In this document: piece by piece, positions 17,235 to 60,574 of the stretch
Numbering within the stretch: the stretch's first letter is position 1
How the letters are laid out: each line of letters starts with the position of its first letter
DNA from: an uncultured Bacilli bacterium
Lineage (GTDB): Bacteria; Bacillota_I; Bacilli_A; RF39; UBA660
Length of the DNA: 64,000 nucleotides
Assembly (NCBI GenBank): GCA_934153675.1
Contig: CAKPFG010000001.1
Location: forward strand, 155,947-219,946
Reading direction: 5' to 3'
Notes under the pieces: generated by a model
Databases searched by the model: none
What the model saw: only the letters and a program-made list of their open reading frames with translations
Told to the model about the DNA's origin: nothing
Program-made: the position numbers and the translations under genes

Positions 17235-18473
17235 CTAATCGTTAAAGAAATATCCAAATATCTTACCTAACGTTGAATCAGGTGCGTTACGAGTACTATC
17301 AGCATGAGTCATTACTGAATATTCACCATCATCTATCATCGAATAATTTTTTCCTTTTAATTTCAATTTACTTATAAAGTAAACAATATTGCCCACAACA
17401 GATGAATATTTGTTATTTCTAACACCAAGCATCTTCATAGTACCAATATTTACATCTTTACCAAATATGTCTGATGCGGCATACTCAAATCCCGCCATGT
17501 TAGACATACCTCCTGTAATAATAATATAATCAATTCTTTTGCTTGTCAAGTTATTTAATTCATTTTTTGACAAATTAAGTATTTCTTTAATACGAGAAGA
17601 TACCATCTCACTTATTTCATACTGATTAATTTTTATTACTTCACCGTTTTTATTTTTACACTCTATTGTGTCATTTGTTTGTGCATGATTAACATCCGCA
17701 ACAGCATACTTATGTTTCATTTTTATAGCATCATCGTTATCAATATTATAAAAAGAAGAAATAGCCAAATCTATACTTTTACCTCCTAGTGCTAAAACAG
17801 TACTTTTTACAATTACACTTCTATTAAAAATAGAAACACTCGTTGTATCACTTCCTATATTTATAATAGCAGCCAATTTATCAGAAAAGTTTTTTGTTCT
17901 AAAGGCATATAAATCACCAATATTATTAATGGAGATATCAACTACTTCAATTCCAATATTTTCAAGTAAACTCAAAACAGAATAAACATTTTTCTTTGGC
18001 ACTGTTACTATTACTGCTCTTGTTGAAAGCTTAGAACCAGTAAGCCCCACTGGATCTTTAATAGCAACAGAATCATTAATCTTAAAATCAATAGGAAGTA
18101 CGGTTACCATTTCACGCCCAGATAATTTTTTTTCTTGTATCGCTTTTTTGATAGTAAGCATTACATCATTATTAGTAATTGCATTAGAACTATCTAAAGT
18201 AATAGACCCTTTAATAATACTATACTCTGCTAAATAGCTAGGTACAGATGTAATTACTTTATTTATTTTAAAGCCAAGCATCTCTTCAATCTCACTAAAG
18301 GCTTGTTTTACAGTAATACTAGCAAGTTCAAAATCAACAATAAGACCTCTTTTAATTCCCTTTGATTTGCAAGAAGTTGCGGCAAGTACATTTAGCTTAT
18401 TTTGAAAAAGTTCACATACTACAACCTTTATTGTATCTGATCCTATATCTAAACTCGTATAAATATGCTTCAT
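17235..18473 (-). CDS. ftsA: Cell division protein FtsA
   Basis: Actin-like ATPase fold motifs ([31 protein letters not shown]); directly upstream of ftsZ. Confidence 0.9.
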
Positions 18474-18683
18474 AAAATCAACTCCTACGGTCTATTAACA
18501 ATTATACTATATTTTTTTATAAAAGTAAAAGAAAAAATAGCGTTTTTCTAAAAATACACTATTTTATTATTTATTATCCATATAAAAATTCTCAAGACCC
18601 CTCATTATAGTAAAACTTTTTTTCTACTTTATCATATAAACAAGCAATCCCTTTTAAATCAAGAACCGGAATATAATCACGAA

Positions 18684-19148
18684 TTAAATTATCTCCATCA
18701 TATATTTTAAATACATATCATAGCTGGAAAATGTTTGAATTGTATTATTTTTATTTCTAACAAAAATGCCTAGTGGTATATTTAAATTGCTAATACTCAC
18801 AGCTAATGTTGTAGATAAATCCCCATATTTTATTATTCCACTCTTATATACTAATTTATTAAATTCAAATTTTGTAGTACTAACATCAAAAGTATATATT
18901 TTTCCTCCTGCACTATATGTTTATCAGACCATAAATAAAAAATTACTTTGACTATTTTCAAAATTTATTTGAAAAGCATATGGCATTTCTAAAGATCCAA
19001 AAATACAATCTGTAACATCATTTCTCGATTCTATTTCACTTTTAAAGACACCACCAAATTTTAATACAGTTTCTATCTTAGTGTTTTTTGTAGGATTATA
19101 ACCAGTATCTACATATTAAGTACCTGTAGATTTTATATAATTTAACTC
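18684..19148 (-). pseudogene. Decayed in-frame 3' extension of the pilin-like gene (four in-frame stops within ~155 codons)
   Basis: Same frame as 19149-19535 stays open for segments of 10, 60 and 78 codons separated by TAA, TAA, TGA-TAA; random frames in this AT-rich DNA hit a stop about every 11 codons. Confidence 0.45.
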
Positions 19149-19535
19149 TTAATATGTATTAATATTTACATTACAATCATTTTTATTTACAATTTCATAT
19201 TGAAAAGTATTATCATACGTTATTTTTACTGTTTTTAAATTAGTGATATCACTATCATTAACAACATCTAAAGTATTTGATAAATATTCTTTCTTTACAA
19301 GAGTCTCCAAAGGAAGACAATATATATTCTCTTTATCTTTTTCAAAGCTTAAATAATTATCACTTACATACTTTTTGGCTGCTGTTATTATTAAATTATT
19401 ATTAATCAGATTAACCTCATTCTTTTTATTATAAATTGAATTAGTAATTTTGGGCATAGCTAATATGAACAATAATCCTAAAATAGTTACTACGGCTAAT
19501 ATTTCAATTAAACTAAATCCTTTTTTCATAAACAC
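19149..19535 (-). CDS. Type IV pilin / pseudopilin-like protein (prepilin N-terminal cleavage-methylation motif)
   Basis: N-terminus MFMKKGFSLIEILAVVTILGLL (K-G-F-S-L-I-E class III signal); located between ftsQ and ftsA. Confidence 0.6.
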   Translation of the reverse strand: MFMKKGFSLIEILAVVTILGLLFILAMPKITNSIYNKKNEVNLINNNLIITAAKKYVSDNYLSFEKDKENIYCLPLETLVKKEYLSNTLDVVNDSDITNLKTVKITYDNTFQYEIVNKNDCNVNINTY

Positions 19536-19537
19536 CT

Positions 19538-20206
19538 CTAATTTTTGAAAGTTTCAAAATATTCTCCACTATCTAAATATAAAGTTCCTTTCTTATCTTC
19601 TAGGGTAGATACTATATCACTATAATCATTAATTTTTTCTATTTTATTTAAAGTAATATATACGTAAATACCATCATTCATAGTTAACAAAAATCTATTT
19701 TTATCTACTTCATTAGGGTCATATTTTATTTCAGAAATTCGCTCTAGAATATCTATATTGATTTTTCTAATAGACAATATAAACTTATTATACACATCAG
19801 TAATATCATTAACAACTAAGGGAACAACTTTATCTTCTTTTATTGTTTTCCCATCATATAAATATATTTTATCCTGATACTTAAACAAAGGATAATTTTC
19901 ATCAACTATAATATATACTTGATTAAAAAAACCTTTTTTATAAACTTTTGCTTTTCTTATATATTTATTTTTTTCTAAATTCAATTTAATAGATAAACTA
20001 TTGGCTTTAAAAATACTAGGATAATCCTTTAAACCGGCTATTTTTATTATCTCTTCATCTGTAAGATAATAATTATTTTTAATATAAATATTAGTTATAT
20101 GATAATTATATATATAAAGAAAAATAAATACTAAAGCAATAAATACAGAAAAAACTATTATAATTTTCTTTTTCCTTAATCGTCTACCCCTTTTTTTTCT
20201 TGCCAT
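19538..20206 (-). CDS. ftsQ: Cell division protein FtsQ/DivIB
   Basis: N-terminal basic tail plus single TM, POTRA-like region; position between murB and ftsA. Confidence 0.6.
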   Translation of the reverse strand: MARKKRGRRLRKKKIIIVFSVFIALVFIFLYIYNYHITNIYIKNNYYLTDEEIIKIAGLKDYPSIFKANSLSIKLNLEKNKYIRKAKVYKKGFFNQVYIIVDENYPLFKYQDKIYLYDGKTIKEDKVVPLVVNDITDVYNKFILSIRKINIDILERISEIKYDPNEVDKNRFLLTMNDGIYVYITLNKIEKINDYSDIVSTLEDKKGTLYLDSGEYFETFKN

Positions 20207-22250: not shown

Positions 22251-23195
22251 TTAAAAACGTTTTGCCAAAGTTTTTTGCTTATAATAACATTGATATAAAA
22301 AATTATTTTTTTCTATTTCATTTTGATACATTAAATCTGCTAATAAAAATATTTTTTTATCATCATCTATGCCAAATCTTTTTTCTTTTTTATATAATGA
22401 CTCTAGAGTATGCTGATCAATATCATTGCTAAGCGATATCAATTTGCAAAAAAAATTTATATTATTTTGACTAACTATTTCATTTAAGGTAGCGTTAGGA
22501 CATCTAAATTCTATCACATTATTAAAAGCGTATTTTAAAGACGGATTTTCAGACAAAGCAAAGGCTTTATAAATAGATTTATTATGGCACCTTTTTAATG
22601 AATTAAAAAAAGAAATATTAAATAATTCGCAAAAAAAACCTTTTACATTATCGTCTTGTTTTATCAAATCGACATTTTTATATATATAATACGCTATTTT
22701 TTTAGCATAATCCTTTCCTCCAACATCACCACGATATTCTCTATATTCTCCATTTGTAAATTGATATATAACATCTTCAAAAATAGCCCATAACTTAAAA
22801 AAATTAATAAGGCTTTGTGTTTGTTTAAAACTCTGCATTCCAACAATCACATGCCCCCCACAATCAAAATCAATTTTTGCATTTAATTTTTTTAAGTTCG
22901 TCATTATATCTTTTAATAGTTTCCAATCTTTAAATTTGTCTTGAAGTGGCCCCATAGTAAGCTCACCACCAATTTGTTCTCCCATTAAAAAATTCCTTGT
23001 AACATGTTCATAATCGTTTTTTAAAAAGGTTTTTTCTTTCTCATTTGTTTTTTTCACAAAATTACTAACATCTTTAAAAAATGCATTTTTATATTCTATT
23101 TCTAAAGAAAAAGTAATATTTTCATTTAAATAAATTTTATTTAAATAAATAGGTTGATAAGTTTTTAAATTTTTTATATATTTTTTATTTTTCAT
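22251..23195 (-). CDS. Glutamine-synthetase-like amidoligase family protein (putative)
   Basis: ITFSLEIEY (ExE strand) and CGGHVIVG (His-rich) motifs reminiscent of the Amidoligase_2/GS-like fold; start probably MIMKNKK after GGGGGGAA RBS. Confidence 0.35.
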   Translation of the reverse strand: MKNKKYIKNLKTYQPIYLNKIYLNENITFSLEIEYKNAFFKDVSNFVKKTNEKEKTFLKNDYEHVTRNFLMGEQIGGELTMGPLQDKFKDWKLLKDIMTNLKKLNAKIDFDCGGHVIVGMQSFKQTQSLINFFKLWAIFEDVIYQFTNGEYREYRGDVGGKDYAKKIAYYIYKNVDLIKQDDNVKGFFCELFNISFFNSLKRCHNKSIYKAFALSENPSLKYAFNNVIEFRCPNATLNEIVSQNNINFFCKLISLSNDIDQHTLESLYKKEKRFGIDDDKKIFLLADLMYQNEIEKNNFLYQCYYKQKTLAKRF

Positions 23196-23197
23196 AA

Positions 23198-23458
23198 TCA
23201 TTCCCCCCATAAAAATAAAAAAAGTGTCCATATTATAACAGAAATCAAAACAAAAGTAAAAAAAGACTTCTTTTTTATTTTATGATTAAATAAATACATG
23301 CTAATTAAAAACAAAAAACATCCTCCTAAAAAGCAAAATAAAAGAAGTGTTTTTTCTTTTATTCGCCACATTTGTTTTATTGCTAATAGTTTATCGATTA
23401 AGCAAAGAAAAAAAGAAATGATATTGATAACGATTAGATATATTAAAAAATATTGCAT
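23198..23458 (-). CDS. DUF1294 small membrane protein
   Basis: LCLIDKLLAIKQMWRIKEKTLLLFCFLGGCFLFLISMYLFNHKIKK matches DUF1294 pattern (IDK..A...RIPE..L...GG..G...FrHKt.K). Confidence 0.6.
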   Translation of the reverse strand: MQYFLIYLIVINIISFFLCLIDKLLAIKQMWRIKEKTLLLFCFLGGCFLFLISMYLFNHKIKKKSFFTFVLISVIIWTLFLFLWGE

Positions 23459-44399: not shown

Positions 44400-45368
44400 T
44401 TAGATAGCAGTTTTTAAGAGGGTTATAACAGGGCGCACGGAGCCTGCGATGCTACCCGCATAGTTGCCATCCACGAAGCCATTGCTGTACACATTCCACA
44501 CGCTAGAAGAAGAATCTTCATATTGACTCATCGTAAAATACCAATAGTTACTATTATATACCCAACTTGGGGTTTCTCCATTTTGTGACATTTTTATTGT
44601 ACCTTGTCCATTATCGCCATATCCTAAATTATCTAATAACTCATTATATGTTATTAATCTTGCACTATAGCCGGTTTTATCCTCTTTTAGATCACTACTT
44701 TTTAATTTACTATTTGACCAAACATCTACTACTTGTTTTATGTTTGATGAATTATAACCTGGCGTACATCCTGCATCACCAACAGTTTCACAAGTATAAT
44801 AAGCAATTTTTAAATAATTATTATCATCATAAGATACTTTGTTAGCAATTTCTGTTGATGATAAATCCACTTCACCCTTTTTTAATGGTTCTGCTTTTAA
44901 TAATGTGACCGTATCACTATTCTCATCACTATTTTCTATAACATAAAAATTAATACCGTTATATGTGATTTCATCGCCTATTTTATAGGCTTTTTTTTGA
45001 AACTTACCATAGTGATACCATCCATCGCTAGTATTTTTATCTTTAACATCACTACTACCTACTTTGCATTCTGATAAGTATACACTTGAATCTTCATTTA
45101 ATAGAGAAATATTACATATAACCTCTTTACCTGAGTATTCAATTTCTAAATCACTTATGTTTGTTGGAAATTCTCCTTTATCTAGTAAGTAATTAGCTAC
45201 AGCAAGTTCTATACTTTTTCCGTATGCATCAACACTTCTTTTATTAGCTGATTCCTTAGCGTGTTTTACGATATTTAATACAATTGGGGTTACTATTAGT
45301 GCTAATATAGCTAGTATTACTAATACGGCTATTAATTCTATTAATGTAAATGCTTTTTTATTTTTCAT
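44400..45368 (-). CDS. Type IV pilin-like protein (prepilin N-terminal motif) with large C-terminal domain; 3' end unusually GC-rich
   Basis: N-terminus MKNKKAFTLIELIAVLVILAILALI; last ~100 nt of CDS (44410-44520) ~50% GC with atypical codons (GCA GGC TCC GTG CGC CCT). Confidence 0.65.
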   Translation of the reverse strand: MKNKKAFTLIELIAVLVILAILALIVTPIVLNIVKHAKESANKRSVDAYGKSIELAVANYLLDKGEFPTNISDLEIEYSGKEVICNISLLNEDSSVYLSECKVGSSDVKDKNTSDGWYHYGKFQKKAYKIGDEITYNGINFYVIENSDENSDTVTLLKAEPLKKGEVDLSSTEIANKVSYDDNNYLKIAYYTCETVGDAGCTPGYNSSNIKQVVDVWSNSKLKSSDLKEDKTGYSARLITYNELLDNLGYGDNGQGTIKMSQNGETPSWVYNSNYWYFTMSQYEDSSSSVWNVYSNGFVDGNYAGSIAGSVRPVITLLKTAI

Positions 45369-58375: not shown

Positions 58376-58741
58376 TTAATCACGTGGTTTAAATATTAAT
58401 GAGAAAAAGAAAGAAAATATAATTGCCGCTACAATACCAGAAGAAGTTAAATCAAACATTCCTATAAAAAGACCCATAGCACCATAATTATTAACTGTAT
58501 CCATTGCTCCATGAATTAATAAATGTCCAAAAGAAGTTATAGGCACAAGCGCTCCTCCTCCAGCCCATAAAACAAATTTATCATAAATATTAAATGAGTC
58601 TAAAAAAGCACCTACAACAACAAAAATAGTTGTAATATGTCCAGGCGTTAATTTGGTATTGTCAAGAATAATTTGACCTATCAAACAAACTATTCCACAA
58701 AAAATAAAAGCATTTAAATAAATCATAAAGCCTCCAAGCAA
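58376..58741 (-). CDS. spoVAEB: Stage V sporulation protein AEb
   Basis: Small polytopic membrane protein with GGGALVPITSFGH motif shared with SpoVAC/SpoVAEb; last gene of spoVAC-AD-AEb. Confidence 0.7.
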   Translation of the reverse strand: MLGGFMIYLNAFIFCGIVCLIGQIILDNTKLTPGHITTIFVVVGAFLDSFNIYDKFVLWAGGGALVPITSFGHLLIHGAMDTVNNYGAMGLFIGMFDLTSSGIVAAIIFSFFFSLIFKPRD

Positions 58742-59709
58742 ACAGCATGACTAATAGATGGAATGGACTGTTTTTCGTTTACTATTGTTTGACTCATTAA
58801 AGCACCGGTTGCTACCATTAATACTTTTTTTAATTTTCCTTTTTTCATTTTTTCTATTATATAACTATAAGCAACTAAAGCAATGCAAGAAGGCCCTGAA
58901 CCTCCTGCATAAACATCTTTATTTTTAAGATCATATATCATACAAGCACTATCTGCTAAATTATCAAATTCTATTTCATATTCAGTTTTCATAAAATCTT
59001 TCAAAATATTAAAACCGTATTTCCCTAAATCACCTGTTAAAATCAAATCATAATCCTTTACCTTAGTATTGGTGTTTTTTAAGTGAGTAAATATGGTTTT
59101 AGCAGCAGCTGGAGCCATTGCTGCCCCCATATTTAAAGGATCTTTTTGATCATAATCAACTACCGTTCCTAATGTAGCTGAAGTTATTTTTATTTTAGAT
59201 TTTTTACTAGATAAAAAAGCACTTGCAGCACCAGTTGTTGTAAACGTAGCACTTTTTTTCTTTGGGCCTCCATATTCTACGGGTTGTCTAAATTGCTTTT
59301 CACTACAACAATTGTGTGAAGATGTAGATACAACTGCATTTTTTACTTGATTTGAAGAAATTAAACAAGATGCAAGAAGTAATCCAAGCGTACTTGTTGA
59401 ACAGGCTGCATATATCCCAATCAAAGGTATTTCTAGTTTAGCTGCAGTATAATTCGTACTAACTATTTGATTTAATAAATCTCCAGCTATATGAATATCA
59501 ATATCATAATTTTTAAGTCCTATTTTACTAAGTAATACATCAACACATTCTTTATGCATTTTTATTTCTGCTAATTCAAATGTTTTCTCCTTAAAATATA
59601 AATCTTGATAACTTTTATCAAAATAATTTCCAAGAGGACCTTTTTTTTCATATGGACCAGTTATAGTTGCAGTTTCATTTACATATACATTGTCAAATTC
59701 AAAAGTCAT
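58723..59709 (-). CDS. spoVAD: Stage V sporulation protein AD
   Basis: 328 aa thiolase-like fold protein between spoVAC and spoVAEb; overlaps neighbours. Confidence 0.75.
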   Translation of the reverse strand: MTFEFDNVYVNETATITGPYEKKGPLGNYFDKSYQDLYFKEKTFELAEIKMHKECVDVLLSKIGLKNYDIDIHIAGDLLNQIVSTNYTAAKLEIPLIGIYAACSTSTLGLLLASCLISSNQVKNAVVSTSSHNCCSEKQFRQPVEYGGPKKKSATFTTTGAASAFLSSKKSKIKITSATLGTVVDYDQKDPLNMGAAMAPAAAKTIFTHLKNTNTKVKDYDLILTGDLGKYGFNILKDFMKTEYEIEFDNLADSACMIYDLKNKDVYAGGSGPSCIALVAYSYIIEKMKKGKLKKVLMVATGALMSQTIVNEKQSIPSISHAVCLEAL

Positions 59710-59710
59710 A

Positions 59711-60151
59711 TTAACCTCCTATAATAATTAATCTTAAAAAACCAAAAACATATGCACTCACAACACCAAATAATATAACAGAGCCCGCAAGACGAAACAT
59801 ATTAGCCCCAAGACCAGTCACTAATCCTTCTTTACGATATTCTAAAGCTGCACTCATCATAGCATGAGCAAATCCTGTAATTGGAACAATCAAACCACAT
59901 TTAGCAAAATTGACCCATTTATCGAAAAAACCTAATGAAGTAAATAAACATCCCAAAAAAATTAATGTTACAATCATAAAAACAGAAGCTTCTTTGGTAG
60001 GAATATTTAAATAATAAGAATACATCTCAACTAAAACTTCGCCAATAACGCCCATAATACCACCTATAGAAAAACTTATAAATCCATTCAAAAGTCTGTT
60101 TTCTTTTTCCATATGTTTTGAAACTATGCTTTGATATTTATTTTTTTCCAT
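59711..60151 (-). CDS. spoVAC: Stage V sporulation protein AC
   Basis: 146-aa membrane protein with IVPITGFAHAMMSAALEYR. Confidence 0.75.
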   Translation of the reverse strand: MEKNKYQSIVSKHMEKENRLLNGFISFSIGGIMGVIGEVLVEMYSYYLNIPTKEASVFMIVTLIFLGCLFTSLGFFDKWVNFAKCGLIVPITGFAHAMMSAALEYRKEGLVTGLGANMFRLAGSVILFGVVSAYVFGFLRLIIIGG

Positions 60152-60193: not shown

Positions 60194-60574
60194 TTATTCA
60201 TCAATTTTTTTATACTTTTCACATTCTTTTTCATCATCTATATAATGATAATGATATTGATTACTATAAGACTTAATACCCACACAACCTATCATTTTCT
60301 TTTTTGTAAGTGGATTAGTTAACATTGTATCAAGATAACCACTACTTACAATATCTTTTACATATATAACCTTCTCATCATTTTCTACTTTAAAATCAGA
60401 ATTCATAATATAATTTTCAGCAGAAGACAAAATCGTATTAACCTGAGATTCATAACTACTTTCTCTTGCCTTTTTTATAGAATCATTGACTGTTGGCACT
60501 AAAATAACAGAAAGAATAGAAAGTATTACTAAGATTGCCAAAAGTTCTATTAAAGTAAATGCATTTTTTTTCAT
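60194..60574 (-). CDS. Type IV pilin / ComGC-like pseudopilin
   Basis: MKKNAFTLIELLAILVILSILSVILVP N-terminal prepilin motif; 126 aa; 42 bp upstream of spoVAC. Confidence 0.6.
   Translation of the reverse strand: MKKNAFTLIELLAILVILSILSVILVPTVNDSIKKARESSYESQVNTILSSAENYIMNSDFKVENDEKVIYVKDIVSSGYLDTMLTNPLTKKKMIGCVGIKSYSNQYHYHYIDDEKECEKYKKIDE

Follow-up and report, generated by a model that had tools for sequence, protein, structure and literature searches.

The 64,000-nucleotide stretch of contig CAKPFG010000001.1 analyzed here (the window), from an uncultured Bacilli bacterium, very probably carries a unitary pseudogene of a modular type IV pilin within its division and cell wall (dcw) gene cluster. 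The ancestral gene would have encoded a protein of ~320 aa, made up of a class III signal peptide, a pilin module of ~125 aa and a ~190-aa jelly roll of the LamG/concanavalin A (ConA)-like type. The present gene retains the pilin module as an open reading frame (ORF) of 126 aa, and the remainder, the former head of the protein, has decayed. Three observations carry this interpretation: an intact orthologue occupies the same position in the gene order of related species, the gene has multiple lesions that are reproducible between assemblies, and the disabled part evolves neutrally.

The ORF with a prepilin N-terminus is on the minus strand between an ftsQ-like gene and ftsA, where the sequence-only reading had placed it. 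The locus has the following parts:
19538..20206, minus strand: ftsQ/divIB-like POTRA_1 gene, the TAG stop of which overlaps the Shine-Dalgarno sequence of the pilin gene, with an 8-nt gap to the ATG
19149..19529, minus strand: the ORF that remains (126 aa plus TAA), which encodes an entire type IV prepilin module
18574..19148, minus strand: decayed remainder, a putative former LamG/ConA-like lectin module of ~190 aa, untranslatable, delimited by tblastn and DNA alignment to the orthologue P0001 at locus L001 and by the family alignment
17235..18473, minus strand: ftsA, intact, 412 aa, with ftsZ next after it

A Shine-Dalgarno sequence (GAGG) is located 5 nt before ATG 19529, and all homologues open with MKKGF. 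The start given in the ORF list, GTG 19535, sits within the Shine-Dalgarno sequence itself (aGAGGTGtttATG). The true start is therefore ATG 19529, and the module that had been described as 128 aa is indeed an intact prepilin module but has a length of 126 aa. Because of the short gap and the overlap of the ftsQ stop codon with the Shine-Dalgarno sequence, we infer that the pilin gene is co-transcribed with ftsQ.

Orthologues in conserved gene order identify what the relic used to be. The query for homology searches was the stitched read-through translation (320 aa), and 60 proteins were found. The best match, P0001 (323 aa), has 52% identity at 99% coverage (E 3e-93) and is encoded in a sister species (L001) in the order mutL-murG-murB-ftsQ-[P0001]-ftsA-ftsZ-methyltransferase-sigma-PRC, which is the gene order of the window. 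The slot between ftsQ and ftsA is also occupied by P0002 (519 aa, with two tandem heads) in a third species (L082), and by P0009 and P0010 in further strains of the L001 species (L107 and L108). Intact homologues are thus found at the same dcw position in all four loci and, together with the mapped lesions, they bear out the earlier proposal of a pseudogenized, formerly longer pilin-like protein. The ancestor was longer than had been proposed, at ~320 aa rather than ~285 aa.

Identity between the window and L001 declines from FtsZ (94%), MurB (84%), FtsA (80%) and FtsQ (70%) to the pilin module (60%) and the decayed part (51%). DNA identity between the species is ~78%, and synonymous sites are saturated. 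Other members of the family (P0011, P0012/P0030, and P0036) are orphans at unrelated loci, so the dcw position is specific to a small clade of AT-rich gut Bacillota. In the family alignment, the conserved pilin module (~125 aa) is followed by the motif Y.ELNYLESTGTQYIDTG, a core that is hypervariable, and a conserved tail (KIYDN..LVRDYIPVLD....CL.DKVEKK.YYNQGTGEFLYG). A profile scan of the genome contigs with this alignment returned only unrelated pilin N-termini (up to 37% identity), dominated by KGFTLIE[IL]L.

Lesions were mapped base by base against the P0001 gene of L001 and then against nine other assemblies of the species. At least six lesions destroy the module in the window gene, and they fall at these sites:
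19149..19151, minus strand: TAA nonsense codon that ends the present ORF, exactly at the pilin/lectin junction (ACT, Thr, in the orthologue); fixed in all 10 strains
19116..19118, minus strand: TAA nonsense codon where the STGTQYIDTG motif has a near-invariant Gln (CAA in L001); fixed throughout the species
18920..18945, minus strand: out-of-frame patch containing TGA 18926 and TAA 18923
18707..18716, minus strand: site of a 10-nt deletion of one copy of TTTAAAATAT, found in the window strain only, at which the relic passes from frame 1 to frame 3
18592..18594, minus strand: TGA nonsense codon in place of the invariant Gly (GGC in L001) of the C-terminal NQGTGEFLYG; fixed in the species

In the frame of the pilin ORF, stop codons occur at 19151 (TAA), 19118 (TAA), 18926 (TGA), 18923 (TAA), and 18686 (TAA). 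The sequence-only reading had described a decayed in-frame extension that ends at 18684 and is interrupted by four nonsense codons. The relic is real, but it comprises 575 bases (19148..18574) and continues 110 bases past that end point, because the 10-nt deletion at ~18712 shifts the frame. Frame 3 picks up just before the 18686 stop and reads KIYDGDNLIRDYIPVLDLKGIACLYDKVEKKFYYNEGS, a stop, EFLYG and a stop, the last being the ancestral TAA at 18576..18574. Alignment to the orthologue also replaces the four nonsense codons with three nonsense substitutions plus frameshifting deletions. Compared to the P0001 gene, a net deficit of 5 nt near 18945 and a 1-nt deletion near 18922 leave ~16 nt out of frame, and frame 2 within this patch reads LWSDK, which matches AWSDI in P0001. 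The TGA-TAA pair is therefore a by-product of two small deletions and not of two point mutations. The 1-nt deletion is common to all strains. A TG deletion near 18941, which restores the frame by chance, is present only in the window strain and L097; in strains that keep the TG, frame 1 reads NLFYLWSDK and then leaves the frame. The single long open frame is thus partly a coincidence, since two deletions compensate in the window strain. We rejected a split arrangement of two genes, encoding a pilin and a separate lectin, because no open piece of the relic is longer than 78 codons and the longest one is without the conserved ends.

Comparison with other assemblies of the species separates the fate of the two modules. 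The exact FtsQ protein of the window was found on at least 20 contigs. Nine loci (L089-L097, from Hadza, Nepal, and other samples) are ~99% identical to the window, and all of them carry the 126-aa ORF. Four lesions are common to all ten sequences (TAA 19151, TAA 19118, the TGATAA patch with its 1-nt deletion, and TGA 18594). Strain-specific events include a 13-nt deletion in five strains and two 1-nt insertions. The truncation had been called recent, which holds in a relative sense; however, the loss predates the common ancestor of the ten strains, because the four lesions are fixed in all of them.

Population statistics were calculated from nine aligned sequences (the window and the eight assemblies L089-L096). 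The decayed part has 22 segregating sites in 475, a nucleotide diversity (pi) of 0.0169 and six indel events, whereas the pilin module has 4 segregating sites in 384, a pi of 0.0042 and no indels. The genes murG, murB, ftsQ, ftsA, and ftsZ have pi values of 0.0016-0.0045 and no indels, except for four indel events in ftsZ that are presumably an artefact at the trimmed end of the alignment. By Fisher test, the decayed part differs from the pilin module (p 0.002) and from all flanks (p 4e-9), and its nucleotide diversity is four times that of its neighbours. From the raised diversity and the six indel events relative to the flanks it follows that the head evolves neutrally; the pilin module behaves like a gene.

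By structure prediction, the lost part would have been a lectin jelly roll of the LamG/ConA-like type. In the AlphaFold2 model of P0001, which has a predicted local distance difference test (pLDDT) score of 82, the pilin module (residues 1-120) consists of an alpha-1 helix (7-57) and a small sheet, and residues 130-323 are predicted to form a two-sheet beta-sandwich with the jelly-roll fold of ConA-like and LamG domains. Foldseek searches of viral models with this head matched proteins of gut Siphoviridae and Myoviridae (E 5e-16 to 2e-11), followed by proteins annotated as ConA-like lectin or LamG; searches against PDB added sialic-acid-binding CBM40 domains. At the sequence level, a PDB search matched the pilin alpha-1 helix only.

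The family to which the head belongs is very large. A profile of stand-alone modules matched 26,525 representative proteins (clusters at 50% identity) at E <= 1e-3 and 18,256 at E <= 1e-10. Many proteins of the family have 3-13 tandem copies of the module and reach lengths of up to 7,647 aa. The ~190-aa module is recognized by the signature YLESTGTQYIDTG ... FYYNQGTGEF (P0079-P0228). Stand-alone modules of 201 aa (P0045 type) are encoded just upstream of a holin in phage-like contigs (L100-L103) and before an endolysin in L105, and the 408-aa protein directly before P0045 matches a PHROG "tail protein" family. Three IMG/VR viral contigs encode the module, in one case immediately before an endolysin. 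The lost module is homologous to the 201-aa phage-region proteins and to those of the IMG/VR contigs (E about 1e-15 to 1e-27). The pilin head of P0011 is 67% identical to P0038 (201 aa) over the whole module, and the N-terminal leader of P0038 nearly matches that of the phage-borne P0045. Because of this likeness, pilin heads and phage-region modules share variants. In the full-text literature, no paper containing the motif STGTQYIDTG was found, and none of relevance that joined pilin, tail fibre, and LamG.

The history of the locus can be reconstructed as follows. The ancestral gene was probably co-transcribed with ftsQ, and its jelly roll would have been bounded by Y.E(L/V)(N/E)YLESTGTQYIDTG and RDYIPVLD....CLYDKVEKKFYYNQGTGEFLYG. 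By analogy with the modular pilin PilC of Streptococcus sanguinis, the head may have been displayed on a type IV filament or a membrane-anchored pilin as a ligand- or glycan-binding adhesin. In the lineage of the window, the head was disabled by a pair of nonsense codons at the junction, a third near the C-terminus and a 1-nt deletion, all now fixed, and the dead part drifts neutrally, with strain-specific deletions of 13, 10, and 2 nt. The conserved promoter of ftsA, downstream of the relic, is retained.

The pilin module that remains has the features of a prepilin. Its leader MKKG is followed by FSLIE (MKKG and then FSLIEILAVVTILGLLFILAMP); it is basic and ends in Gly, with Phe at +1, Glu at +5 and ~20 hydrophobic residues, as in class III signal peptides. 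The 126-aa ORF matches PF07963 (22.2 bits, cutoff 21.2) and TIGR02532 (25.8 bits, cutoff 16.3). The AlphaFold2 model of the remnant (pLDDT 77.5) has a helix at residues 7-57 and strands at 69-73, 99-106, and 108-115; in the predicted models of both the remnant and P0001, the long alpha-1 helix lies on an antiparallel beta-sheet in the lollipop fold of type IV pilins. The alpha-1 helix, the small beta-sheet and the conserved Cys71/Cys119 pair are all present. The module is probably still made as a short pilin without a head, and we put this no higher than probable because divergence of the module between species appears to be ~1.3-fold accelerated.

Several points weigh against a working short pilin and against a ligand-binding head in its ancestor. 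The near-invariant Thr at +2 is changed to Ser in the remnant. Identity of its pilin module to every relative is 56-61%, whereas relatives of different clades share 61-70% with one another; for FtsQ, the three species are equally distant. This pattern suggests the accelerated divergence in the window lineage and, with the change at +2, means that constraint on the remnant may be relaxed. For a selection test, polymorphism in the pilin module offers just 4 variable codons, 2 synonymous and 2 non-synonymous. The gene is an orphan outside any pil locus. Any assembly of the remnant into a filament is hypothetical, because a tblastn search of the 64-kb window with a T2SSF fragment and Pfam scans of selected ORFs turned up neither type IV pilus machinery nor a prepilin peptidase; a T2SSF gene is present in a sister species. 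As for the head, ligand binding is putative, being read from the predicted fold, and the module has no Pfam or NCBIfam match at E values up to 1 (P0001, P0045, and P0085) and no PHROG match.

These points give some strength to the view that the whole locus is dead and that the 126-aa ORF is non-functional as well. The faster divergence, the loss of Thr+2, the two non-synonymous changes among four polymorphic codons and the lack of visible pilus machinery in the window all speak for it. However, the module has 384 nt free of indels directly beside a stretch with six, and its diversity is the same as in ftsQ and murB. It also retains an intact Shine-Dalgarno sequence, start codon, class III signal and Cys pair, and a natural head-less pilin of the same size is encoded in the same genome (60574..60194). 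We therefore regard death of the entire locus as a serious alternative, but a less likely one than continued production of a short pilin.

The head also varies in the sister species, and single-lesion alleles there bear on another alternative, reversible phase variation, in which headed and head-less forms would alternate by slippage. Between L001, L107, and L108, identity is 95-100% across ftsQ, the pilin module, the C-terminal tail, and ftsA but falls to 30-45% over the ~450-nt core of the head. Near-identical flanks around a divergent core indicate that the head is swapped between strains by allelic cassette replacement at a fixed locus. Two alleles have single, independent lesions in homopolymer runs. 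P0068 (177 aa; L109 2501..3579) has a single 2-nt deficit in a T7G4 run, and the rest of its head is open in another frame. P0071 (126 aa; L098 3001..3420 and L099 2242..2788) has an A-run frameshift exactly at the module junction; this copy is at a different locus, adjoining an IS110 transposase gene and a T2SSF gene. Such OFF alleles may reflect phase variation or very recent loss. In the window species, however, the truncating lesions are substitutions fixed in ten strains together with irreversible deletions, and there is no ON allele in any of the ten, so that phase variation is a very unlikely account of the window gene.

Production of the full-length protein by read-through, an altered genetic code or programmed frameshifting is slightly less likely still. 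In its favour are the unusual openness of the frame and TGA 18594, which stands in place of a Gly, as would fit genetic code 25. Against this, TAA, TGA, and TAG end 37, 12, and 11 of the 60 window ORFs tallied, and the ORFs compared with orthologues are full length. Reading of TGA as Gly was rejected on the count of 12 ORFs that TGA terminates. Three kinds of stop and at least two frameshifts would have to be overcome; strains differ by indels of 13, 10, 2, and 1 nt, which no single scheme absorbs. A tRNA scan found no tRNA genes in the window and thus no suppressor tRNA there, and the four-fold raised diversity is that of neutral DNA.

An assembly or sequencing artefact that conceals an intact gene was a worry of the sequence-only reading, and it has hardly any probability left. 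The window is apparently derived from a metagenome, and some of the lesions are in A/T-rich runs of low complexity. Nevertheless, the nine other assemblies are independent, come from different samples and studies, and have the same ORF, truncation and lesions; three lesions are base substitutions, and neighbouring genes are full length relative to their orthologues. Chance openness of AT-rich intergenic DNA can be dismissed: about 10% of 465-nt window frames have 1-5 stops, but these are mostly real genes, and the read-through translation matches intact proteins nearly end to end. The 155 codons from 19148 to 18684 have 4 stops in the pilin frame compared to 18 and 20 in the other two frames, and five or fewer stops in the best of three frames occurred in 0.22% of 5000 dinucleotide-preserving shuffles. 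The expectation of a random stop about every 11 codons was accurate, as stop codons in the six frames of the window are on average 11.0 codons apart, and the openness that had been noted stands up to shuffling.

Expression signals of ftsA are located downstream of the relic:
18534..18565, minus strand: weak AT-rich hairpin followed by a U run, terminator-like, between the ancestral stop and the ftsA promoter (-8.5 kcal/mol, z -2.5)
18501..18529, minus strand: sigma-70-type promoter-like site TTTACT-17-TATAAT for ftsA, outside the decayed gene

The promoter-like site and the ribosome-binding site of ftsA are nearly identical in L001 and L082, both of which have the intact gene, and the same hairpin architecture is present in both. 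The intergenic region upstream of ftsA has no segregating sites in 102, a pi of 0 and no indels among the nine aligned sequences. It had been suggested that the truncation may have affected ftsA expression signals. This is unsupported, because the promoter and ribosome-binding site lie past the ancestral stop and are invariant in the species. A consensus terminator scan made no call, including at the 18534..18565 hairpin, and an Rfam scan of 18300..19700 found nothing.

Other features of the window concern pilins, the dcw cluster and the source organism. A second orphan modular pilin is encoded at 44400..45368 (minus strand); it is intact (322 aa; PF07963, 32 bits), and its C-terminal module (~200 aa) is unrelated and has no Pfam match. 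The N-terminal part shares 48% identity with P0036, a protein with a LamG-type head encoded between mraY-LemA and ftsW in another organism. A third orphan pilin at 60194..60574 (minus strand; 126 aa) consists of the pilin module only and is directly upstream of the spoVAC-spoVAD-spoVAEB operon (59711..60151, 58723..59709, and 58376..58741). Between mutL and murG, a 326-aa gene with a weak Amidoligase_2 match (22251..23231, minus strand) is absent from L001, and L082 has an AAA_14/DUF4143 gene at this place. Because the occupant differs among the window, L001 and L082, the mutL-murG gap, on the margin of the dcw cluster, is a variable site of insertion. The window is very AT-rich (overall GC ~24%; 0.19-0.31 per 2 kb), and its GC skew is steadily negative from about 8 kb. 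It encodes spoIIP, spoVA, yqfD, and a sporulation-type sigma factor, and the species is known from human-gut metagenomes; the source appears to be a spore-forming Bacillota species.

In Bacillus subtilis, the interval between divIB and ftsA contains ylxW, ylxX, and sbp. The likeness to the window is one of position only, as the occupant here is the pilin-lectin gene of a small clade. Modular pilins are documented, including one with a ConA-like lectin (PMC8179133; PMC9934059). PilC of Streptococcus sanguinis consists of a pilin, an Ig-like module and a ConA-like lectin module (PMC9934059), and PilB is a modular pilin of the wider class (PMC8179133). The ancestral gene and its orthologues resemble PilC in having a class III signal, a short pilin module, a short linker and a predicted ConA-like/LamG beta-sandwich. 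They differ from it in having no sequence similarity beyond the signal peptide and no Ig-like spacer. In addition, the gene here is an orphan in the dcw cluster of three species, whereas the PilB/PilC type is in a pil locus, and its head is cassette-swapped between strains, with variants shared with phage tail-region proteins. The orthologues have the modular-pilin design; the present window gene, with its head destroyed, is a former member.

Two further comparisons are instructive. With phage tail-fibre or receptor-binding tips, the head shares conserved ends and a hypervariable core, the pattern of swappable tips; unlike these, it is fused to a prepilin and is encoded in conserved chromosomal housekeeping synteny with no phage genes nearby. 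With ComGC, ComGD, ComGE, and GspG, the module shares a typical size (126 aa) and weak matches of the N-terminal signal and alpha-1 helix (E 1e-4 to 3e-6). However, equivalog scores are far under their cut-offs (ComGC, 22 compared to 75 bits), and there is no comG operon context.

Pseudogenes and lectin-headed modular pilins are known kinds, and the family behind the relic is uncharacterized. A bolder proposal, to which we give a rather low probability, is that the family represents a previously undescribed system of a clade of uncultured, spore-forming and very AT-rich gut Bacillota, in which a pilin co-expressed with division genes would draw a LamG-type head from the cassette pool of phage tail-fibre tips for a function in an arms race. 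A cell-borne copy of a phage receptor-binding domain might mask the cell's own wall receptor or compete for it. Alternatively, the protein could be an adhesin under immune or phage-driven diversifying selection. Such a function would fit the wholesale swapping of heads between strains and their recurrent loss, which is fixed in the window species and seen as single-lesion alleles in the sister species.

Taken alone, the window feature is a pseudogene of an ordinary kind, of value for what it points to. It leads to a clade-specific modular pilin in the dcw operon and to a very large jelly-roll family without a Pfam, NCBIfam, or PHROG match in the members scanned. It also leads to head variants that are shared between pilins and phage tail regions, with heads that are replaced as cassettes and repeatedly lost. 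In this way, uncultured human-gut Bacillota come within the "modular pilin" idea of Pelicic and colleagues, and the intact, freshly frameshifted and long-dead alleles form a natural series for head turnover.

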